Program-made: the position numbers and the translations under genes
In this document: positions 11,750 through 36,512 of the stretch, in pieces
Layout: the number at the start of each line of letters is the position of its first letter
Numbering within the stretch: the stretch's first letter is position 1
Notes under the pieces: generated by a model
Told to the model about the DNA's origin: nothing
What the model saw: the letters and a program-made list of their open reading frames with translations, nothing else
Databases searched by the model: none
NCBI GenBank assembly: GCA_027218345.1
Contig: GCA_027218345.1_3950.1
Reading direction: 5' to 3' (one strand)
From: a phage
Length of the DNA: 64,000 bases

Positions 11750-12020
11750 AAGTTACGTTTGTTACTGCCATTGCAGATTTGCATTTTGCAGGGTCTACAA
11801 CGTGATAAAGTACACTACAGTTACCTGTGCTGTCTGGGACAGGCTTTACCCATTGATGCTTTATAGTTGGCTCTCCTAAGTCTTTGTAAGAACCATCTGT
11901 AAAGTTGTTTACCATCTCAAGTGCAATTGGTTCTGGAACATGACCGCGTATCATGTACATCTCACAACCATTACCACCTTCACTGACTAATGGTAAAATC
12001 TCCCACTTTTCTTTAGCCAT
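11742..12020 (-). CDS. hypothetical protein
   Basis: 92-aa ORF. Confidence 0.35.
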   Translation of the reverse strand: MAKEKWEILPLVSEGGNGCEMYMIRGHVPEPIALEMVNNFTDGSYKDLGEPTIKHQWVKPVPDSTGNCSVLYHVVDPAKCKSAMAVTNVTFD

Positions 12021-12528
12021 TGTAAGTTGCTCTATAAACTGTCTCGAACTTCAACAGGAGAGATATTGCCAAATCTGTATAGTTGTTGTCAAGCACATCT
12101 GGCATATTATTTTTGATATATTTCTCTTGCTCTTCATAGGTCATCTTAGGGATACTTAGGAGGCTATCTCCTTGCTTCTGGTTATCAGCTTTAGTTTGGA
12201 TAAACCAGTTCGCACAGTGATGTTCACCACCTTTTGTAACAGGTTTGTGGTGGCCTAGTGTAAATGTTTGCTTACCCGTATACCTGCAAAGATTGTTCAG
12301 TGTTGCAATGGTGTTCTTCACAACACACCATTCATACAGGTTATCTATTGTGTAGTGTGGGTAATAACGGACAAGTGCTCTTTCACGGAAGTTATCATGA
12401 TTCCAAAGAACCATGTGATTAGAATTTGAAGGGTCATATTTGTGGGAGTCTATAAACTCTTGACGCTCATCAAAGCTGAGTCTTAGAACTGACATTGCAA
12501 CCGAACGTTTCAGGTTTGACAGGTACAT
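12013..12528 (-). CDS. hypothetical protein, possible HNH-like nuclease
   Basis: NNLC...GHHKPVTKGGEHH segment loosely HNH-like; inserted between prs and nrdG region; weak. Confidence 0.3.
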   Translation of the reverse strand: MYLSNLKRSVAMSVLRLSFDERQEFIDSHKYDPSNSNHMVLWNHDNFRERALVRYYPHYTIDNLYEWCVVKNTIATLNNLCRYTGKQTFTLGHHKPVTKGGEHHCANWFIQTKADNQKQGDSLLSIPKMTYEEQEKYIKNNMPDVLDNNYTDLAISLLLKFETVYRATYNG

Positions 12529-14821: not shown

Positions 14822-15769
14822 TTACATAGAAACTCTGTCACGAATCTCAGCAATTTTTGCATCATTCATTCGGGATTCACCTTTAATCTTAGTCCATCCA
14901 AGATAACCACACACCCTGTTAATCACAGAGATATCATGTGAATGGCAAACCTCACATTCTTCAACATCAGCCTTTGGTCTGTTACCACAATGCTCACAGA
15001 TTGCTAAGTCAAAGTTAAGCCCCTGATAAAAACCTTTCAACATCCCTCTGGTAATACAACTTTTAAGTGCTGTTAAGTTTTCTGGGTTAGCTACCCTTAC
15101 ATACTGGATTCTGCCACCTCTACAGATGTGGAAGAATGGCTCTTCTAAGTCCTGCTTCTCAAATGGTGAAATGTTTGCTGCAACATTCATATGGAAACTG
15201 TTTGTAAAGTATTCCTTGTCAGAAACGCCTTTGATAACACCAAACATATCTCTGAACTGTTTTAGCTGAGTTCCACACAATGACTCTGCTGGAGTGCCAT
15301 ATACTGCATACAGGAAGCCATCTTCATTCTTAAACTCTTCAGTTTTCATGTTAATGTATGCCAGAACATCGTATGCAAAACTAGAACTTCCAACTTCATG
15401 GAGTCGTTTACCTTCAGCAAGAACAGATAACTCATCAAGCGCAGTAACCCCAAAAGAAGCTGTGAAGGACTTCACGATATCCCAACCAACCTTGTCGGTA
15501 GGTTTTTTAGTTCCTTTGTACAAACCACCTTGTGTGAATGCAAGAGGGTTAGAACTTGCTGGCATATTAGCAATCATTTCGTAGCGTTTCTTGTGGAAGC
15601 TGCGAATCATCTCTAGGTACTTATCAAGCTCTTTCCAGAAATCTAAACCATTCTCTTTAGAATACTGGTAAATCATTGGTAAGTTCAAAGATACCGCACC
15701 AATGTTAGCACGACCTACATAAAACTCTTCACCATCTTCGTTATGGTATGGTGATAAAAATGCTCTACA
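14822..15769 (-). CDS. nrdD: anaerobic ribonucleoside-triphosphate reductase, exon 2 (C-terminal part with glycyl-radical site)
   Basis: Frame stays open upstream of the track start back to a Cys codon near 15767-15769 (CRAFLSPYHNEDGEEFYVGRANIGAVSLNLP...); C-terminal Zn ribbon CEHCG...CEVCH and RVCGYLG. Confidence 0.7.
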   Translation of the reverse strand, partial: CRAFLSPYHNEDGEEFYVGRANIGAVSLNLPMIYQYSKENGLDFWKELDKYLEMIRSFHKKRYEMIANMPASSNPLAFTQGGLYKGTKKPTDKVGWDIVKSFTASFGVTALDELSVLAEGKRLHEVGSSSFAYDVLAYINMKTEEFKNEDGFLYAVYGTPAESLCGTQLKQFRDMFGVIKGVSDKEYFTNSFHMNVAANISPFEKQDLEEPFFHICRGGRIQYVRVANPENLTALKSCITRGMLKGFYQGLNFDLAICEHCGNRPKADVEECEVCHSHDISVINRVCGYLGWTKIKGESRMNDAKIAEIRDRVSM

Positions 15770-16085
15770 CTTGTTGTTCAGGTAAGTTCGCTACGCTTAC
15801 CCCGCTTTATTCAAGCTGCTTACTGTCGCCAGTAAGTCCAGACTATATCTTCTACTTATTTCTAAGTAGCGTACCATTTCGAGTCGCTTGACCCTACACC
15901 GCTACATTCATCACGGTTAGTCGTTCGGCATTTAGATGTATTCAAACTCATATTCGAAGTTACTTGGCATGTAAGACTCCTATGTTGTATAGTTTCTTAC
16001 ATCGTACATCATTTAGCACAGGATTGTCTACTCTTGTAGAGTTTCCCTGTTTAGGCACGTTTTAGATGAGCTATAGAGCTTGTTA
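15770..16085 (-). ncRNA. group I self-splicing intron (about 315 nt, no ORF) interrupting nrdD
   Basis: P-like AACAGGGAAAC, Q-like CAATCCTGTGC, S-like AAGATATAGTCTGG (plus 15841-15852 is its complement), 5' exon ends in U, intron ends in G; boundaries +/-2 nt. Confidence 0.65.
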
Positions 16086-17282
16086 ACCCATCGGCGAAAT
16101 AACCTTGCCAGAACGCTCAAAAGCTTCTGCTACAGCACCATGACCAGATACACTTAAGAAATCTGGATACATCGCTTTAGAGCAACACTCAATAGCTTTA
16201 CTGTACAGGTGACTTTGACAGATATTTTCATCATGTCTCTTCTGGTCATAAATATAAACCAGTTTAGGGAATACAACAGGCTTCTTGCTCTTACCTTGTC
16301 CATTCATACGAACATCTAGGAGAGTACTTGCAATCATGTATTGTAGCCGGTTGTCTTCATTAGACATATCTGAGTCAAGTAAACCAAATGTCAAAGTTGT
16401 GAATGCGAAATCACCACGGCTGCAAGGTACGGTGTTTAGCTTCATTTCAAGTGATTGAAAACCTTGAGTCAATTCAAGCTGTAGCTGCTCCATGACATAA
16501 TTATGGTAATGTTCTTTAGGAATACCATAAGATGCTGCTTTCTCAGCATGGTAACGTAGAGACTTCTTAGCATACGGTACAAGTACCTTATCAATCTCTG
16601 CTAAAGTAAAGCCACCAAATTGCTGTGCAGTTGCTGAAAGAACTACATCACCAATAACCTGTAAGGCTGACAGCACAGACTTTGGTTCACAGTATTCAAT
16701 GCCAGACATTTCAAAGCCACCTTTCAGTACTTTACCAATGTCAAACAAGCAACAGTTAATACCACCAAAAATTAGGTCTCTTAAATCATGGATATAGATA
16801 AACCCTTTTTCAATGGCTTCAAGTTCCTCTGGTGTTAAGTGGTACTGTTTAAAGATTTCTTTAGTCAGATAACCACGAATAATTGAACCTTTTGTAGAAA
16901 TTAAACTGCTGTCAAAATTAGCGTTTTCTCTGTCACCTAAGAAGAGTGTATCTTTGGTCTTCTGGTAGAGTTCATCCCAATTTTGAGCAACCTCTTTACG
17001 GTAATTTCTATATGTTGAGTAAGACTCATAAATCTCGTGATTGACTTCTGCCAAAGCACCCTCAACAATACTGTGAATATCATTTACTGAAACGAGTAAA
17101 TTATTCTGCTTAGTGGACTTTACCAGAATCCTCATAAATGCTGACTCAAGAGCTTGGGTAACATCTGGTGGAAGCTCTTTATAACCAACTCTGTTAGCTG
17201 ACTTTGTGACTGCTACTAAAACTTTTTTGATATCAGGTTCTTCGAGTGAGCCATTCTTTTTAATAATCTGTACTTTGTTCAT
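16086..17282 (-). CDS. nrdD: anaerobic ribonucleoside-triphosphate reductase, exon 1 (N-terminal part with ATP-cone)
   Basis: 399-aa ORF ending ...VISPMG then stop that falls inside the intron; class III RNR-like; continuity with exon 2 after intron removal. Confidence 0.7.
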
Positions 17283-23071: not shown

Positions 23072-23569
23072 TCAAGCACAATTTGCTTTCATTACCTTAT
23101 GGATTCTTTTTTCAGCGTCTTCATAAGTTTCTTTAGTGATAAACTTAATTGCTGCAATATTGGCATTGTAGAAGAGTCTGAGCTTCGAGTCAATCCTTTT
23201 TGTCATTACATCGAATTTATGTTGAAGGTTAGCTTCACCATAAACTAGGCCACCTTTTGTGTAGTAGGTCTGAATAATGTAAAAGTCAAAAAATTCTTTT
23301 CCAAAGCTTTCAATATCTTTTTTAATATACTCAGAAGAAGTTTCATAAGTCATCCAATCACTCTCCTTAGTAACTACCTTCTTCCGAGTCTTGCCAGCAA
23401 CTTTTCTTTTGGTCACGCTATTAAACTGTTTCCTTCCGATATAATATTGCCCAGTCTTCTTACAGTGTACTAAATAGACAAAACCAAAATGTTTAGTGGG
23501 GTCAACTTCCCCACATAAAGATACCCAATGACCGTAGGTGGGGCAATTGCCAAATCCTTTAATTTTCAT
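23072..23569 (-). CDS. GIY-YIG domain protein (possible free-standing homing endonuclease)
   Basis: GFVYLVHCKKTGQYYIGRKQ resembles the GIY...YIG catalytic motif; sits between conserved genes. Confidence 0.4.
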   Translation of the reverse strand: MKIKGFGNCPTYGHWVSLCGEVDPTKHFGFVYLVHCKKTGQYYIGRKQFNSVTKRKVAGKTRKKVVTKESDWMTYETSSEYIKKDIESFGKEFFDFYIIQTYYTKGGLVYGEANLQHKFDVMTKRIDSKLRLFYNANIAAIKFITKETYEDAEKRIHKVMKANCA

Positions 23570-24599
23570 TCATACATGGCTCCCAATTATATTTCTTAAA
23601 AGTGAAATCGTCTTTCTTGTTTCTTTCCTGATAAGCTAAGAAAAAGTGTTGCTGCATTAACTCTAAAGGTGTTCTGGTAATTGTTTGACCATCCCATGAT
23701 ACATAAGTGTAGGAGTCTTTCTTAGCATATAGCTCGTAAATTGCATCAAGACACTCTTTATAAGTATTTTTCCCTTCAAGAGCCTTCATCACAGCAGCTT
23801 TGCCAACACCCTTTAAACCAAAATAATTATCCGCATTATCACCAGCCACAGCTTGGTAACAAAGAAATTTAAAACCTACCCCAACTGTCTTCTTAGCTTT
23901 TGGTGTCGATTTTATTGGACAATCCCAAATTTCACCAACGTTGTTATCAGCAATGAAAATCAAAGGTGACTTTTCATAGGTCATATCAATGCAGTAAGTC
24001 CCTTCAGCTTGACGAAGGTCTTTATCAATACTCATTAAGGCAGCCTTTTTTCCCATCTTTTCAGCTTTAGCAATAACGATAGAGTCAGCTTCAAATCCAT
24101 CAAGAATCAATTTGAACTCTGGTCTTGACAGAAGGTATTCACGACAAGCGACTAAGTGTGTTGGTGTGACAGCATCTTTACGGTTACCTTGATATTGGTG
24201 CTCAAGACCTTTAATGTCTTTGTGTTTATGCACACCTTTCTCTGTTAAATAACCTACCCAAGTTCTTTCTTTACCAACAACCTTAAGCCATTCCTGAAGC
24301 ACCTGTTGAGTAGCCATGATAGCTTCTTTTTCACTCTTAGCTTCTTTCCAAGTCTGTCTTTCCCATTCATCTTCATCAAATGTCAGGCCAAGTTCTTCCA
24401 CAAGGATTCTCTGGTCTGCTAACCATCTTGCAGCATCTTTCGCATTGTCAAATGGTTCAGATTCTTCTGCTGTGAGTTTATTGACGTATTTATATTTTGC
24501 TTTCTCAACTACACAAGCACCTTTATAGGCAATGCTGTCAGAGTCAATAAAAACATGTGTAACTGAATCGGGAAGTTTTGTTAATGTGTACTTCTCCAT
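23559..24599 (-). CDS. 5'-3' exonuclease / flap endonuclease (RNase H-like)
   Basis: N-terminal acidic cluster HVFIDSDSIAY and helix-3-turn-helix motif GDNADNYFGLKGVGKAA. Confidence 0.65.
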   Translation of the reverse strand: MEKYTLTKLPDSVTHVFIDSDSIAYKGACVVEKAKYKYVNKLTAEESEPFDNAKDAARWLADQRILVEELGLTFDEDEWERQTWKEAKSEKEAIMATQQVLQEWLKVVGKERTWVGYLTEKGVHKHKDIKGLEHQYQGNRKDAVTPTHLVACREYLLSRPEFKLILDGFEADSIVIAKAEKMGKKAALMSIDKDLRQAEGTYCIDMTYEKSPLIFIADNNVGEIWDCPIKSTPKAKKTVGVGFKFLCYQAVAGDNADNYFGLKGVGKAAVMKALEGKNTYKECLDAIYELYAKKDSYTYVSWDGQTITRTPLELMQQHFFLAYQERNKKDDFTFKKYNWEPCMNEN

Positions 24600-29787: not shown

Positions 29788-30210
29788 TTATTTCTCTCTC
29801 AGTTGGTTAAGTTTCTTTCTAGAACATTTTAAGTTTTCGGATGAAGAAAAGTCAAGTGTCTTTTCAGAACGTGGATAATAGTGCCTATCCCAAGAAGTTT
29901 CAACATCGTTAATCAGTGACGCTAGATTACACAGGTCTGTACCACTTTGCAACCTCTTTTTAAGAGAATCTAGTAAAGCAACTGTGTCTTTAGCTTTACG
30001 TCTCGCTGTAGCAACATCTTTCATATGCTCAAATACAGAGCATTTTAAGTCATCTTCATAGTTTTCAGACAACTCTATTTCATGTTGTATATCAACCATT
30101 CTCCTGTGATGGTGAGCATATTCCCGTTGAGCAGCAATGTCAAGTTCTTCCAACTTCTGCAAAGCTCTAACAAAGTCAGCTATGTCTGGGTGAACAAACA
30201 TTTTCTGCAT
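29788..30210 (-). CDS. hypothetical protein
   Basis: 140-aa ORF, first gene of minus-strand block. Confidence 0.35.
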   Translation of the reverse strand: MQKMFVHPDIADFVRALQKLEELDIAAQREYAHHHRRMVDIQHEIELSENYEDDLKCSVFEHMKDVATARRKAKDTVALLDSLKKRLQSGTDLCNLASLINDVETSWDRHYYPRSEKTLDFSSSENLKCSRKKLNQLREK

Positions 30211-30467
30211 GTAAGCCTCTTTTAAGTAACTATTAAGTTTTAATCTTTTATCTTAACGTATTCTATACGTTATACTTTAAAGCTTTTTAAAAGCTATTAA
30301 ATAATCTTTTAAGAATTTTAAAGTATCTGTATAGTTAAACTGTTAAGTAACCTTTTAAGTAAAAACCCACTTCGCAAAGATTAACACCTTGTCAAGTACA
30401 TTGTCAACTTGCTTTTTATAATTTTTTGCAGTAATGTATGTGGTTAATGATTTTAGAGGGAGTAAAA
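30211..30467. promoter_or_regulatory. AT-rich divergent intergenic control region with repeated TTAAGTAA motifs
   Basis: Lies between divergent minus (29788-30210) and plus (DNA polymerase) genes; TTTTAAGTAA-like motif at about 30219, 30342, 30352; TTGTCA and TATAAT hexamers present but spacing not canonical. Confidence 0.35.
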
Positions 30468-32610
30468 ATGGAAAACGTAGATTTTAAAAACTTACATTTG
30501 GTTGGCGATACAGAAACTGATGGTTTACTCCTTGAGTTCACTAAAGTACACGTAATGGCTTTCGCAGACTATAAATCTGACGATGAAGAGCCACCTGTAT
30601 GGGTCTTTACAGATGAGCCTATCCTCGGTCACAAGTACACTAAGTACATTAAGGGTGGTTTACGTGAAGGTGTTGAGTTTGCGTTAAAGGCAAAACGACT
30701 TTGTATCCATAACGGCCTCGGTTATGACTGGTGGGTCTTCAATCACATTGCACCGGATTTATGGAACTTTGATAATCCAAAGTGTAAGCCGTGGAGTAAT
30801 TTCTTTCAGGATTCTCTTATCCAGTCTCGTGTTCAGTGGATGGATAGACCAACTCCAAAGGGTTATAAAGGTGCTCATGGCTTGGCTGCATGGGGTGCTC
30901 GTGTTGGTGTCCGTAAACCAGAGATTGAACATTGGGGTGTGTGGAATGCAGAAATCTTCACTCGTGTTGTGGAAGATATCCGTATTAACGCCAAAACTAA
31001 ACGCGCACTAGATAATGAATATCTCAAGCTGAAGAAGTGTGGCATAGACACCTATGAAACCTATATGCGAGCTAAAGAAACATCTTTCTGGATGAGTCAA
31101 CAAGCTATCAATGGTTGGAAAGCTGATAAAGAGCTTATGGAGTTCCATGTAAAGGAACTTGACAAGTTGACTAATGAGCTTGCTTCGGAAGTTGAACCAC
31201 ATCTTCCTCCAACTATTAAGACCAAAGGTAAAGTTACTGGGGAAGAGTTTGCAAAAGCTTGGAATGAGTATGTTGAAGCATTTGGTCATGCAGATGGACT
31301 GAAGAGAATCACCAAGTACCCTAAGACAAAGTATCGTCAGCAGGTACGTAATGGTGAAATGCAGACATATGAAATCAAGCCATTTGGTAAGCCAACTACA
31401 AAGATTTTTAACATTGAAAAGAGAAATTGCTATACGCCAACCAACTCTGTAACTGGTGAAGAGTACAAGGAAGGTTTTGTAGCAATGAAGGATGCTCGTG
31501 CAATTTGCAATGAGTTGAACGCAAAGATTGGTAAGAAATGCAAAGACTGGAAGCCAGTAAAAACAGTCAAAACTGTGAAGTACTATAACAGCCACGTTGT
31601 TAACCACTTTGAACTTGAGTCAAGTCGCTACACAGGATTGATTGATGCACCATATACACCAATTGAGTTTGAAGTTTCTCGTATGACTCAGGTAGCAGTT
31701 GTTAAAGACTACTTGAAATCAGTTGGTTGGATTCCAGATGACTGGAACTACAAGAAAGACTCAGATGGTCGCCCTGTCAAAGTTTGTCGTTTCAAAGACA
31801 ATAAAAAGATGATTACAAAGCATCCTAAGTGGCAGGAGATGGTTGAGCGGTGTGGTTTGAGCTATGTTGAGCATGAAGGTGTACAGTACATTGAGCATAA
31901 CTGGTCTGTGAAGAAATACACAGATTTGCTTGAGCCTTGCTTAATCCGTACTTCACCAAAACTTACTGAATCATCTTATGATACGATTGAAGGTGAACTT
32001 GGACAGAAGATTGCTAAGTACTATACTTTGATGCACAGACGCAGAACTATTGAGAACTCAAAGGATGATGAAAAAGGTTGGTTGAACCAGATTCGTCCTG
32101 ATGGTCGCCTTAGTGCTGGTGCAATGGTATTTGGTACTTCAACTGGACGTATGACACAATATGGTATTGTAAACGTACCGTCTGGTGCTGCTGTCTATGG
32201 AGCACCTATGAGGGCAGTGTGGATTTGTGAAGATGGAACCAACGTAGTCTCCGTTGATATGAACTCAGCCCAGCTAGTTCTTCTTTGCAACTTTATGGGT
32301 GATAAAGAGTTCACTAAAGCAGTAACTGAAGGTAAAGAGTCAGTAGAATTTACCAAGCAAGAAGATGGGAGGTATTATTGCAAACATCTTGATAAGTACC
32401 TTAATCCAGAAACTGATAAGTATCTTCGTTATGATGCTGAGAATGACCTCTATGAGGTCTACACAGGGACTGATGCGCATACACTGAACAGTATTTACTT
32501 TGGTCTGAACAAGGAGGAAGATATTGTTCGTTGTAGGGAGACACAGGATGAGGAACTTCTTCACGAGATTACAAAAGGCCGTAAGAAAGCCAAAAATGGC
32601 ATTTATGCGT
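30468..32610 (+). CDS. family A DNA polymerase, exon 1 (3'-5' exonuclease and polymerase domains through motif B start)
   Basis: RBS AGAGGGAG then ATG at 30468; DTETDG exo motif; ends ...RKKAKNGIYA within motif B; track ORF continues 13 codons into intron before stop. Confidence 0.75.
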
Positions 32611-32877
32611 CAGTGGCGCATGTAAAACGTTGTGAATTGCTGGAAGCCTAAGTCTGTAAAGATATGGTAATCAGCAGCGAAGCCTCTTAAGAGGAACGTT
32701 CAGAGACTATCGAAAAGCATACTTAACGTATGAACTGAGTAGAGTAGGGTGGTAAGCTAATGACCATCCCAAGTGCAACGGTAGCACCACTGCTACGTGA
32801 TATAGTCCGACACTCCGTAGAAATGCGGAGAAGTTCATAAGAGAACTGGTACACCTTGCGAGTGTATTGACCAGATG
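32611..32877 (+). ncRNA. group I self-splicing intron (267 nt, no ORF) in DNA polymerase motif B
   Basis: P AATTGCTGGAAG 32635-32646, Q AATCAGCAGC 32669-32678, R GTTCAGAGACTA 32698-32709, S GATATAGTCC 32799-32808; P1 exon ATGCGT with intron GCGCAT (U-G at splice site); terminal G at 32877. Confidence 0.8.
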
Positions 32878-33434
32878 TATTGTTCGGGGCTGGAGACGAG
32901 AAGTTTGCAAAAACTATCAAGGCATCATCTACGGAAGAAGGTGCATTGACTAAACAAACTTACTATATGCGTCTGCCAAAGATTAAGAAGTTACTTGATA
33001 GCTTAGAAGCCGATTTTAAGGCGTCTAAAAAGGCTCTGGAAGAGGTTTTTGGGAAGAATTCTTCAATTGCTAAAGGTGGTTATATCAGGGTCGCTGGAGC
33101 ATGGATATGGTGCAAATCTCCACATAAACTACTGAACTACCTCCTGATGAGTTCGGAAGCACAGATTCAGAATGAGGCCATCAACCTAGCAGCAAGAAAA
33201 GCCTGTGAAGATGGCCTGACAAAACTGAATGCTCGAAAACCAGCTATCGGAGCAAGGTTACTTCTGGCATATCACGATGAAAATAGTTGGGAATGTCCAG
33301 AGGGTATGACACATGATATGAAAGCAATTGCTGACTGGATGTATGGACAAGCTTCAAAAAACTTAGGTTTGAGGAAAGAAACACTTGTAACTGGTACAGC
33401 AAAGGTTGGTAAGAGCTGGTATGAGGTACATTGA
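32878..33434 (+). CDS. family A DNA polymerase, exon 2 (motif B remainder and motif C)
   Basis: Joined reading gives ...KNGIYA-LL-FGAGDEKFAKTI, matching T7 gp5-type motif B KxxIYGxLYGAGDEK; ...LLAYHDENSWECPEG resembles motif C (HDE). Confidence 0.75.
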
Positions 33435-33437
33435 TTA

Positions 33438-33971
33438 ATGGATTTAATTTTACAAAAACGTTTAAAGGAGCTGCTGCACTATGACCCCGAAACAGGGGTC
33501 TTTACTTGGCTTCGTAGAGAAGGTAAATCAAGAGCTGTTAGTGTTTTTAACAGTAATTATGCAGGAAAGGTGGCAGGTAATATCCAGACTGACTCAAGTG
33601 GTCATAAACAGATTAGTATCTATTTTGACAAGAAAGCACATAAAGCACACAGACTCGCATGGCTTTACGTGTATGGCAAGATGCCAAAAGGTATCATTGA
33701 CCATATCAACGGCGACTCACTTGACAACAGGATTGTAAACTTAAGGGAAGCAGATGATTTTCAAAGTGCTTGGAATAAAGGTAAACCAGTCACCAATAAA
33801 TCTGGGTACAAGGGTGTAAGTCTTAAGAAGAAGTCTGGTAAGTGGGTCGCACAGATAAGTTATAAAGGTAAGAAGATGTTTTTAGGTTACCATGACACAC
33901 CTGAAGAAGCCCATAAAGCTTACTGTGAAGCTGCTATTAAACTCCACGGAGAGTTTGCAAAACTAAGTTGA
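33438..33971 (+). CDS. HNH endonuclease with AP2 DNA-binding domain (free-standing homing endonuclease candidate)
   Basis: HNH core HRLAWLYVYG...IDHINGDSLDNRIVNLR and AP2-like GYKGVSLKKKSGKWVAQISYKGKKMFLGYHDTPEEAHKAY. Confidence 0.6.
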   Translation: MDLILQKRLKELLHYDPETGVFTWLRREGKSRAVSVFNSNYAGKVAGNIQTDSSGHKQISIYFDKKAHKAHRLAWLYVYGKMPKGIIDHINGDSLDNRIVNLREADDFQSAWNKGKPVTNKSGYKGVSLKKKSGKWVAQISYKGKKMFLGYHDTPEEAHKAYCEAAIKLHGEFAKLS

Positions 33972-34022
33972 CAAGGTGCTCAGGGAAGAGTACCTTATAC
34001 AATATCTTGTATAGGAGAGCTT

Positions 34023-34232
34023 ATGAGCCACCGTGGAAGAACCCATGCAGCGATGATGAAAGGTGCTTCAAAAGAGACTATCAAAAATCGTAAGCAGAAG
34101 TTGTTTGAGAGAATGAACAGGTTAATTGACAATTCATCTCTTTCAGGTTCTGAGAAGGTTTTCTTGAAAGGTAATCTGAAAAGCATTGCACAAGAACTTG
34201 TAGATATTGAATATTGGAGACATCAAAAATGA
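34023..34232 (+). CDS. hypothetical protein
   Basis: 69-aa ORF. Confidence 0.3.
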   Translation: MSHRGRTHAAMMKGASKETIKNRKQKLFERMNRLIDNSSLSGSEKVFLKGNLKSIAQELVDIEYWRHQK

Positions 34233-34447
34233 CACTTGCAGACGTTATTCAGCAACTTCATGATAACTGCTACACTCCAGAGTTAATTCAGGAGATGTCC
34301 ATTGCAGTCATGCCTAGCAAGTTCGTAAAAACCTTTAACAACGACGCTTTAAGGTCTACACACATCCTTATCGTTGACGGTAAGATTGCAAAAGACCGTA
34401 CTGGAGTACTTAAAGGTGAACGTATTGATATTCTGGAGTTGCTATGA
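34214..34447 (+). CDS. hypothetical protein
   Basis: 77-aa ORF. Confidence 0.3.
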   Translation: METSKMTLADVIQQLHDNCYTPELIQEMSIAVMPSKFVKTFNNDALRSTHILIVDGKIAKDRTGVLKGERIDILELL

Positions 34448-34579
34448 AGAAAATGTACAGTCTCTGGGGAAGGGTTGGTGAAGGTTTTGACTGGACACTT
34501 CTTCGTTCAAACGTTAAACGTAGTGAATTACCAGAACTCATCACTCACTATTTAAAAACATACAGAGAGGTAGACTATC

Positions 34580-34837
34580 GTGAACAATAAGGTTAAGAGT
34601 TGTGTGAAAGCAATGGTTGCACTTGGAGTAATTTTTCTATCTGGCTGCAATCCCTCTTACGAGGACAAAAATGCTTCTTATAGTCTCCCACCAGAGATGC
34701 AAGATTGCAAAGTCTATAAGTTAAATGGGGATGCAATAAGCAGAGATATTGTTGTTGTCAGATGTCCAAACTCTCAAACAACAACATCTTATAGCTATGG
34801 CAAAAATGGTCAATCACATACTACGGTTATTGAGTGA
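34580..34837 (+). CDS. small lipoprotein
   Basis: Signal peptide with lipobox FLSGC. Confidence 0.4.
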   Translation: MNNKVKSCVKAMVALGVIFLSGCNPSYEDKNASYSLPPEMQDCKVYKLNGDAISRDIVVVRCPNSQTTTSYSYGKNGQSHTTVIE

Positions 34838-34847
34838 GGTTTTCACG

Positions 34848-35054
34848 ATGGAAGTCCTAGTAAACTATATCTACTGTTATGATGTTGTTCACTCCACTAC
34901 AACGGTAGCTCAACGTAACCCAATCGTACCACGAGAAGGTGAATTGGTTCGCATTGAGGGTTGGACTTACACTGTGGAAAGCATCATTCATAAGTTTGAT
35001 GTTGCTGGCGATGTTCAAGTTATCGACGTAGAAATTGGTGGTAAGAGAAAATGA
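34848..35054 (+). CDS. hypothetical protein
   Basis: Track ORF 34749-35054; ATG at 34848 avoids overlap with upstream gene. Confidence 0.3.
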   Translation: MEVLVNYIYCYDVVHSTTTVAQRNPIVPREGELVRIEGWTYTVESIIHKFDVAGDVQVIDVEIGGKRK

Positions 35055-35269
35055 CTGTAGAAGATAAATTTAAGAACGCAGTTCTTACAGAAGATGGTGA
35101 GCTTGAAACATTCATTCTTCGTGTTGATGGTAAGCTATTCCGGTGTCGTTGTGGGTCAAACTGTTTCCATAAACCAGATAAAAATGACTTAGAGCTTTAC
35201 GCATGTAATGCTTGCAATACTTGGTATCACTCAGAGGTTAAAAATGACAATTCTGTACAAACAAAATAA
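35051..35269 (+). CDS. small zinc-ribbon protein
   Basis: CRCGSNC...CNAC Cys pairs, 72 aa. Confidence 0.3.
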   Translation: MTVEDKFKNAVLTEDGELETFILRVDGKLFRCRCGSNCFHKPDKNDLELYACNACNTWYHSEVKNDNSVQTK

Positions 35270-36344
35270 AGATGGCTCTTTCAATGTCTGGTCATGCGTT
35301 GCTGTAGGTGACAAAGTTATTACAACCTACGGTAAAGAAAATGGCAAGATGATGTTTGAAGAGTATACAGCAGAACCTAAAAACATCGGTAAAAAGAATG
35401 AGCGTAATGCTGAACAACAAGCTCTCTTTGAAGTTGCTGCTAAGTATAAAAAGCAAGTTGACCGTAAAGGTTATGCTTACACAAAAGAGTCTGCACAGAA
35501 TACTGAGAAGGTAGGTGTACAGCTTGCTCATGATGCTGCAAAGGTTAGCCATGCAAAGTATCTGAAGTTCCCTGCTGATGCTCAACCAAAACTTGATGGT
35601 GTCCGTTGTAGAATTTCAAGAGGTGATGATTCAGTTAGTTTCACGGCTTATTCTCGTGAGAATACTGTTTATAAAATACCTACTGAGCTAACACCTGACA
35701 TTATGACTATGTTAAGACTCCATGCAGACGTTGATGAGTTTGACGGGGAGGTTTATGCTCATGGGTGGGACTTAGAAGATATTGTCTCCATGATTAAAAA
35801 TGAAGACAACCCAGACAGACATCTTCTTAAGTTTTACTGGTATGACATCTGTGATAGCACTAAGACGTGGCCTGAACGTAGGGATATTATTGAGACTTCA
35901 CCATTGAATGACTTGAGAGATGGCTGTAAAGTTGTCCCTGTTAAGTCTCGTCGTGTAAACTCTTGGGAAGAATTTGATGAAGCTCATGATAAGTGGGTTG
36001 AAGTTAAGTTTGAAGGTGCAATGTACCGTTCAATCTCTGAAGACTCCTTCTATGAGTGTTGTCACCGTTCATACTTCTTGATTAAGCACAAGAAGATGCA
36101 CACTGAAGAGTTTAAAGTGACTGGTGTAAAGACTGATAAACGTGGTCATGGTAAGTTCGTTGTAGAGACTCTTCCTAACGTCTTTGTAGATGTCTCATGG
36201 AAGACTACTCATGAGAAGAAACAGTATCTTGCTGAACATCCTGAAGAGTTTATCGGGAAACCTTTAACGGTTCAGTTCCAGAAGATGACTCGTAAGGGGT
36301 CTTTACAGTTCCCTGTTGGGTTAGTTATACGAGATTATGAATAA
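35244..36344 (+). CDS. ATP-dependent DNA ligase
   Basis: Adenylation motif I KLDGVRC; size about 366 aa; track ORF starts at 35208, ATG at 35244 preferred. Confidence 0.65.
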   Translation: MTILYKQNKDGSFNVWSCVAVGDKVITTYGKENGKMMFEEYTAEPKNIGKKNERNAEQQALFEVAAKYKKQVDRKGYAYTKESAQNTEKVGVQLAHDAAKVSHAKYLKFPADAQPKLDGVRCRISRGDDSVSFTAYSRENTVYKIPTELTPDIMTMLRLHADVDEFDGEVYAHGWDLEDIVSMIKNEDNPDRHLLKFYWYDICDSTKTWPERRDIIETSPLNDLRDGCKVVPVKSRRVNSWEEFDEAHDKWVEVKFEGAMYRSISEDSFYECCHRSYFLIKHKKMHTEEFKVTGVKTDKRGHGKFVVETLPNVFVDVSWKTTHEKKQYLAEHPEEFIGKPLTVQFQKMTRKGSLQFPVGLVIRDYE

Positions 36345-36350
36345 AAGTTG

Positions 36351-36378
36351 TTGACATAGAAAATTTGGTGAGTATACT
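36351..36378 (+). promoter_or_regulatory. sigma70-like promoter (TTGACA-N16-TATACT)
   Basis: Consensus -35 at 36351-36356, -10 at 36373-36378 in intergenic region after ligase. Confidence 0.45.
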
Positions 36379-36512
36379 GAGCAGCATAAACCAACAGGTA
36401 CTCACCAGCATCACTTAAGAGTCTTCTAAGAGGGTTTTAAGTGATGTTTGGTTTGGTATGGAAGGATGGCAGTAGCCTTATAAAAAATCTGCCAAATAAG
36501 CTATAAAATCTG

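Follow-up and report, generated by a model that had tools for sequence, protein, structure and literature searches.

The open reading frame at 33438–33971 very probably belongs to the HNH-AP2 class of free-standing homing endonuclease genes. It comes after the DNA polymerase stop codon and before the promoter-like element of the genes that follow, in a 64,000 nucleotide stretch of phage DNA that is analysed here and referred to as the window. On comparison with database records, the window is a segment of a Felixounavirus genome. The Felixounaviruses are the Felix O1-like myoviruses of Escherichia, Salmonella and Shigella. A total of 262 phage records match the window region 30000–36500 at 90–99% identity, the closest being Salmonella phage pSJ21 and Escherichia phage KEP1 at approximately 96%. 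Nearly all of these records are Felixounavirus, and the HNH-AP2 locus thus belongs to the replication module of a phage of this kind. For comparison, polymerase–HNH loci were gathered from GenBank (14 loci), IMG/VR (29 loci) and again from GenBank (8 further loci), and were sorted by script. The sampled genomes are related to one another and the record counts given here are not counts of independent events. The features of the locus are as follows.

30468–32610, plus strand: DNA polymerase (family A) exon 1; the start is ambiguous, being placed at 30438, 30447 or 30468 across the annotations of relatives
32588–32610, plus strand: 5' exon flank of the intron insertion site; together with 32878–32891 it has 12 differences in 37 nt from intron-less type A genomes
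32611–32877, plus strand: group I intron of 267 nt without an ORF (Rfam RF00028, 62.8 bits; compared with intron-less HY02 and bumzen)
32878–33434, plus strand: exon 2 of the DNA polymerase gene (haplotype hap0), to which the type A HNH gene is linked
33438–33971, plus strand: putative free-standing HNH-AP2 endonuclease gene, type A allele, 177 aa with an ATG start
33642–33749, plus strand: HNH_3 catalytic motif (aa 69–104; D88-H89, N101-L-R, N113), from Pfam and a 37-sequence alignment
33801–33950, plus strand: AP2 DNA-binding domain (aa 122–171)
33912–33971, plus strand: constant 3' anchor of the HNH-AP2 cassette
33968–34000, plus strand: intergenic element beginning TTGACA (a promoter-like -35) and holding the HNH stop codon TGA, from junction alignments

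The nuclease gene and the junction it occupies

The stop codon of polymerase exon 2, TGA, is at 33432–33434 and is followed by a 3-nt spacer, TTA, and then by the ATG of the HNH-AP2 gene. The ATG therefore starts at the fourth base past the TGA, and an earlier note on this DNA was accurate in placing the gene 4 nt after the polymerase stop. The ORF is intergenic, running from the polymerase stop (33434) to the TTGACA element (33968), and is outside any intron or intein; 557 nt separate it from the end of the intron. A consensus scan for promoters and terminators around the ORF returned nothing meaningful. The TTGACA element, which occurs only once in the window, was not called by the sigma-70 consensus scan. 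With a gap of 3 nt and no promoter of its own, the HNH-AP2 gene is probably read from the polymerase transcript. A terminator-like hairpin at 33483–33500 is considered coincidental, as it sits within the sequence encoding the conserved motif YDPETGVFTW.

The predicted protein matches two Pfam domains, HNH_3 (9.3e-15, aa 69–104) and AP2 (3.1e-12, aa 122–171), and the PHROG family phrog_99, 'HNH endonuclease' (1.3e-72). The AP2 domain is C-terminal and joined to the HNH domain, which is the architecture of the HNH-AP2 class. In the alignment of 37 homologues, residues D88, H89, N101, L102, R103 and N113 do not vary. When the family profile built from this alignment was compared with I-HmuI (PDB 1u3e), the DH...NLR...N motif was aligned with an E-value of 2.3e-6, and the protein has the I-HmuI-like three-dimensional fold. 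Judged from its sequence, the product of 33438–33971 is an intact I-HmuI-like HNH nuclease with an AP2 DNA-binding domain and predicted nuclease activity. In a phmmer search of all HNH types against the 230 six-frame ORFs of the window, the only match was the ORF itself, so no paralogue was found there. Readings of the ORF as a terminase-associated HNH gene or a pure AP2 regulator are ruled out by its position, its dispensability in relatives and its invariant catalytic residues.

The gene is intact in all 27 of the gene-bearing loci that were examined. Within types, the dN/dS of the HNH-AP2 genes is 0.06–0.18, which shows that the proteins are under purifying selection.

In some related phages there is no gene at this junction. 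The polymerase stop codon is followed by 5–6 nt (TTAGTA) and then by the conserved element beginning TTGACAAGGTGCTCA. Such empty sites are present in UAB_Phi87, O157 typing phage 11, wV8, Sf14, EC6, VpaE1 and others. At occupied sites, those of the window and many other phages, an HNH-AP2 ORF fills the gap and its TGA stop codon lies inside the TTGACA. A full type A or A' ORF is present in only 58 of approximately 260 related records. At least four types of HNH-AP2 gene have been found at the one identical site, with protein identity between types of 40–55%.

Type A: the window, HY02 and bumzen
Subtype A' (87% identical to A): dune and SUSP1/2
Type B: BPS17L1, GEC_vB_B1 and Michonne
Type C: Felix O1a and ESCO50
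Type D: GEC_vB_NS7 and LNA1

Across all four types the final stretch of the cassette, 60 nt long (33912–33971), shows 100% identity, and the identity falls abruptly upstream of it. This identifies a sharp recombination boundary.

The polymerase gene on the other side of the cassette is a mosaic. Its first 1.7 kb or so are 94–100% identical among Felixounaviruses. Over the last 1.1 kb or so, from approximately 32100 to the stop codon, the identity is 56–85% at the nucleotide level and 66–88% at the amino acid level, and it is back up directly after the HNH ORF. This low identity is absent between genomes that share an exon-2 haplotype. There are approximately 15 haplotypes of exon 2, which are 8–36% apart, a spread that equals or exceeds the divergence between genera. 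The haplotypes are linked to the nuclease types. Type A is always with hap0 (6 of 6 classified loci), and 43 records are 96–99% identical over exon 2 and the HNH gene together. Type C is always with hap5. The linked flank next to the HNH gene is the signature expected of co-conversion. The linkage is not absolute, which tells somewhat against homing, since hap0 is also found beside type B (locus L017) and type D (LNA1). From this it follows that one cassette can take the place of another next to the polymerase stop codon. In practical terms, phylogenies of these phages, which are candidates for therapy, should not be built on the 3' end of the polymerase gene, a hot spot of recombination.

Homing would account for these observations in the following way. 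During co-infection with a relative that is without the type A allele, the enzyme would nick or cut the DNA of the relative at a specific site, in or beside the 3' part of its polymerase gene. Repair by recombination from the donor would then transfer the nuclease gene, with the polymerase sequence next to it, to the recipient. The donor would itself escape cleavage, as its polymerase gene differs in sequence at the 3' end. The nuclease activity of the protein, its target site and the directional inheritance of the gene are features that we infer. The earlier note had read the gene as a homing endonuclease gene, and that reading is upheld by polymorphism in both presence and type at the exact junction, by precise empty sites and by the linked polymerase flank.

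The group I intron and its association with the nuclease gene

The polymerase gene is split by an intron without an ORF, as had been claimed from the window alone; the Rfam RF00028 match and the comparison with intron-less relatives bear this out. The 5' splice site is after U32610 and the final base of the intron is G32877. Predicted splicing restores polymerase motif B, KNGIYA/LLFGAGDEK, as it is in intron-less HY02 and bumzen. In the centroid fold, a P1 helix of six base pairs has the U-G pair at the splice site. The z-score of the minimum free energy fold of the whole intron is only -1.3, and support for the intron structure therefore comes from the Rfam covariance model and the comparative boundaries rather than from folding energy. 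Two other placements were discarded. The Rfam coordinates, 32548–32830, are ruled out by the intron-less relatives, which give 32611–32877. The automatic placement by MAFFT, GC/TG, breaks the U/G splice-site rule and alters the conserved YALLF motif.

In relatives, the core of the intron is at least 97% identical and is found in three forms: 267–268 nt without an ORF, 311 nt, and 780–805 nt with an ORF. The ORF of the 780–805 nt introns is EndoVII-like and lies in the P6 loop. In the 311-nt intron (GEC_NS7) the P6 stem is still extended and a remnant of the EndoVII-like ORF, its 3' end, survives. Given the near-identical cores and this remnant, the ORF-less introns arise by deletion from the ORF-containing form.

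Is the ORF-less intron a passenger of the neighbouring nuclease gene? A refinement of the homing explanation, rather than an exclusive rival to it, is collaborative or trans homing. Under this proposal the type A enzyme would cut the motif-B insertion site of intron-less alleles, and would move itself, exon 2 and the intron together. The EndoVII-like endonuclease of the intron would be displaced and then deleted. We consider this possible, with the balance somewhat against it.

The distribution of the introns is one line of evidence in its favour. A chimeric query, made of the intron and the 66-nt empty junction and run with a strict E-value, matched 186 records. There was not one ORF-less intron with an empty HNH site among these 186. 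The intron with an empty HNH site was present in 26 records, and in all 26 the intron contains the ORF (approximately 800 nt; three pieces, spanning approximately 1.4 kb). Conversely, the ORF-less intron is present in at least 42 records, each with an HNH-AP2 gene (type A, B or D) downstream of it; this co-occurrence is uncorrected for the relatedness of the records. The derivation of the ORF-less intron from the ORF-containing form also favours collaborative homing.

The second line of evidence is the intron insertion site. Two variants of the uninterrupted site occur (the slash marks the insertion point):

Variant v1: TACGCCC/TGTTATTTGGAGCCGGAGAC
Variant v2: TATGCAC/TGCTGTTCGGTGCAGGTGAT

The two differ by nine synonymous changes in 27 nt, and the changes are centred on the insertion site. 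Intron-less genomes that do not have the HNH gene all carry v2. Type A records either have the intron (32 records) or do not (11 records), and the intron-less type A records that were examined, 12 of 12, carry v1. Thus the site in type A genomes is either interrupted by the intron or is v1, and is never v2. Type C genomes have v1 too, though their exon 2 is very different. Compared with intron-less type A genomes, the window departs almost only around this site: nearly all of the differences (12) are within approximately 22 nt of it, and there are 1–2 differences in the remaining 540 nt of exon 2. All of this would be expected if the type A enzyme recognised the uninterrupted v2 site. There are also precedents for such collaboration in the F-CphI/psbA intron, in T7-like phages and in the mobE/nrdB intron (PMC2790892, PMC3984707 and PMC10448857).

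There are three arguments on the other side. The gap between the intron and the HNH gene is only 557 bp and falls in a block where divergence suppresses recombination, so that linkage or shared descent could suffice to keep the two together. Second, what v1 confers could be resistance to the EndoVII-like enzyme of the intron and not to the HNH enzyme. Third, types B, D and A' occur with v2 in intron-less genomes, so that the site would be a target of no types other than A and C. In the earlier note, mobilisation of the intron by the HNH-AP2 gene had been raised as a possibility; the co-occurrence and the v1 recoding are consistent with it. As judged from these alignments, the association of the intron with the HNH gene fits trans or collaborative homing, short of proof.

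A broader proposal, which we put forward tentatively and would not yet favour, is that there is 'endonuclease turnover' at the polymerase 3' end of the Felixounaviruses. HNH-AP2 types A and C would target the motif-B site. Their carriers would be immune either through the ORF-less intron or through dense synonymous recoding, and the EndoVII-like endonuclease of the intron would be lost only where a free-standing gene took over. If true, this would be a rare population-level snapshot of the rise of collaborative homing and of the replacement of intron endonucleases.

Two other nuclease-like genes, and the possibility of domestication

The following two genes elsewhere in the window had also been put forward as homing-endonuclease-like.

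23072–23569, minus strand: gene for a 165 aa protein with only a GIY-YIG domain (Pfam SegE_GIY-YIG, 1.7e-28)
12013–12528, minus strand: HNH-like gene, 171 aa, mostly conserved, phrog_3500 (function unknown)

If both were active free-standing homing endonucleases, their targets would be the replication genes that flank them, which is unlikely. In 23072–23569 the nuclease domain spans residues 21–138 of the product, homologues of which are 157–180 aa, and the GFxY, YxG, E112, N114, R131 and FYN135 residues are invariant. The tyrosines, glutamate and asparagine of the domain (Y32, Y43, E112 and N135) are conserved, which speaks for a homing nuclease, as does the label 'GIY-YIG homing endonuclease' in some GenBank records. 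However, the distribution of the gene is not patchy. It occupies one position, next to the gene for the 5'-3' exonuclease, in 258 of the 300 records that match, and its homologues extend to Mooglevirus and to the Erwinia Kolesnikviruses, making three genera. No empty site was seen among the 300 matching records. The protein is a nuclease domain alone, with no extra DNA-binding domain detected by Pfam. It shares with the T4 Seg proteins the SegE_GIY-YIG domain and the GIY/YIG tyrosines, Glu and Asn, and differs from them in being only 165 aa long, in lacking a C-terminal DNA-binding domain and in having a fixed position, while the seg genes are patchy. The description of the ORF as GIY-YIG-like stands, and its mobility is not supported. 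By the refuting condition that the earlier note itself had set, conservation in relatives at identical positions, it looks like a fixed core gene of the Ounavirinae, outside the polymorphic cassette and not currently mobile. Many records mis-annotate it as 'NAD synthetase'.

The 12013–12528 product has a weak PHROG match to HNH proteins (2e-6) and no Pfam nuclease match. Its homologues are confined to this phage group and share an invariant, HNH-like motif, GH[HY]KP..GG.HH..NW.IQ...DNQ, which falls in a predicted beta-beta-alpha element. This motif would support a homing function, as would the loss or replacement of the gene in NBEco004, NBSal004, GEP101 and SEP1; in HY02 and BPS17W1 there are partial deletions. 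Against this, the gene is kept in 239 of 258 records. As with the GIY-YIG gene, the ORF is real and the suggested mobility is not supported; its HNH likeness is weak, and the gene looks like a fixed core gene rather than a currently mobile cassette. PDB sequence searches with the two ORFs gave nothing useful.

Least probable of the readings considered, and only slightly behind mobility of these two genes, is that the HNH-AP2 gene at 33438–33971 has been domesticated. It would then serve the phage as a DNA-binding regulator, or as a nuclease in replication, repair or the exclusion of competitors, and would no longer be mobile. The strong purifying selection, with no decayed copy in 27 loci, would also suit a useful domesticated gene. 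Placement in the polymerase operon, after a spacer too short for a promoter of its own, points the same way, and AP2 is the DNA-binding module of transcription factors. Yet many close and viable phages, such as wV8, UAB_Phi87 and EC6, are without any gene at this place, which shows that the HNH-AP2 gene is dispensable. Four divergent types interchange at the one site with sharp recombination boundaries, and the catalytic residues of the nuclease are invariant. These features argue against domestication.

Comparison with known systems

I-HmuI is encoded inside an intron and has a helix-turn-helix C-terminal DNA-binding region. In comparison with I-HmuI, I-HmuII and I-BasI, the nicking enzymes of Bacillus phage polymerase introns, the gene described here is free-standing, lies past the polymerase stop codon and has AP2 instead.

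The HNH-AP2 proteins of phages, cyanobacteria and ciliates are a recognised class of homing endonuclease (Magnani et al. 2004, cited through PMC10448857), and according to PMC10448857 their genes cluster near polymerase genes. The present gene shares the two-domain architecture of the class and does not differ from it in kind, being one allele of a multi-allelic cassette. Dozens of Felixounavirus records in GenBank contain nearly identical copies of it under the label 'HNH endonuclease' or 'homing endonuclease'. The element is thus already known, both in kind and as a gene. Felix O1 itself was reported to have six HNH endonuclease genes and to lack introns (PMC3185647). Felixounaviruses are known to differ in their HNH genes, and in SPJ41 two introns were found as non-coding RNAs (PMC9951933); this phage carries the type A HNH allele of the window. 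In the literature searched there were only passing mentions of a characterised HNH enzyme or a described intron in Felixounavirus polymerase genes, and no biochemical characterisation of a Felixounavirus HNH-AP2 member was found. The possible collaboration with the intron is the sole part of our analysis that goes beyond routine annotation.

The locus resembles the 'HEG islands' of Barth et al. (2023, PMC10448857) in that a nuclease gene adjoins an essential gene, the site holds a homologous endonuclease, a divergent one or none, and identity shifts abruptly at the borders. The mosaic 3' end of the polymerase gene likewise matches the pattern, described in that paper, of endonuclease genes at the boundaries of genetic exchange. 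The study is centred on ICP1 and on T5orf172 and IPA-HNH genes, and the Felixounavirus polymerase locus was not found in the part available. The replacement of an intron's own endonuclease by a free-standing one is also proposed there (PMC10448857).

The closest parallels for the intron are F-CphI and the psbA intron (S-PM2), the polymerase HNH genes of T7-like phages, and T4 mobE with the nrdB intron (PMC2790892, PMC3984707, PMC6083498). Unlike those systems, the locus described here is a candidate for collaborative homing, and its association with the intron could be linkage. F-CphI has an EndoVII motif. Here the free-standing partner is HNH-AP2 and the EndoVII-like enzyme is the one encoded by the introns of relatives. 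A shared feature is that relatives here have this intron with an endonuclease ORF of its own. Among more than 250 sequenced relatives, a single locus has the intron absent, ORF-less or with its own endonuclease, and the HNH gene absent or present as one of four types. Such a locus could make endonuclease turnover, the trans-mobilisation of ORF-less introns and target-site immunity testable in easily grown coliphages and Salmonella phages.

Introns of the nrdD and DNA polymerase genes

The polymerase intron, a group I intron at 32611-32877, is not the only one of its kind in this genome, since a second lies within the gene for anaerobic ribonucleotide reductase, nrdD. Two sites are discussed in this and the following section.

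15770-16085, minus strand: the nrdD intron, also group I and ORF-less, 316 nt long and scoring 54.3 bits with Rfam.
~23559-23569, minus strand: junction of the exonuclease ORF (23559-24599) and the GIY-YIG ORF (23072-23569), compared among relatives.

The 316-nt intron interrupts nrdD between exon ORFs at 16083-17282 and 14822-15688, and some relatives do not have it, their nrdD span being 1085 versus 1401. Within the window there is no endonuclease gene adjoining the nrdD intron at 15770-16085. In BPS17W1 and phiWec177 the same intron carries an insertion of approximately 426 nt, which is annotated as an HNH homing endonuclease.

The polymerase intron is ORF-less here. In many relatives (related loci L002, L018, L025-L027 and L032) it contains, in its P6 loop, an ORF of 161 aa that is EndoVII-like, with a DHDH...CN motif as well as zinc-finger pairs of the CxxC kind. 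One of these, VpaE1 (L032), has a 22-nt deletion inside the ORF, which suggests that it is decaying.

The junction of the exonuclease and GIY-YIG genes

Roughly half of the listed relatives, including Felix O1, wV8, VpaE1, EC6, HY02, bumzen and KEP1, have an extra HNH endonuclease gene of ~490 bp between the 5'-3' exonuclease gene and the GIY-YIG gene. The window has the empty site for this cassette.

Annotation and database records

The Rfam covariance-model match to the polymerase intron, at 32548-32830, is off by ~60 nt at its 5' end and stops 47 nt before the true 3' end of the intron. Automatic annotation from Rfam would therefore set both splice sites wrongly. The GIY-YIG-domain gene (23072-23569, minus strand) is labelled 'NAD synthetase' in both RefSeq and PHROG (phrog_447), in what looks like a propagated mis-annotation. 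Felix O1-like sequence, with 88-97% identity, is also present in the GenBank records 'Campylobacter phage A132/A126' and 'Staphylococcus phage SA1'. These probably reflect contamination or wrong assignment, not real host jumps.

The HNH gene and the region downstream of it

Within the free-standing HNH-AP2 endonuclease gene that follows the polymerase gene, there is a terminator-like GC-rich hairpin and then a T-rich stretch (33483-33500). The hairpin is probably coincidental, because the same stretch is occupied by codons of the YDPETGVFTW motif that is conserved in all of the HNH-AP2 types.

The small-ORF region from the HNH gene to the DNA ligase gene (34000-35200) is variable and rich in indels. 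Alignment gaps and annotations show that entire small ORFs have been gained or lost here, differing by relative. Within the ligase ORF (35208-36344), local identity at 35700-35900 is only 74-80% against almost all relatives, and O157 typing phage 11, which is wV8-like, is 100% identical to the window there. The stretch is a further mosaic patch, here within a ligase gene.
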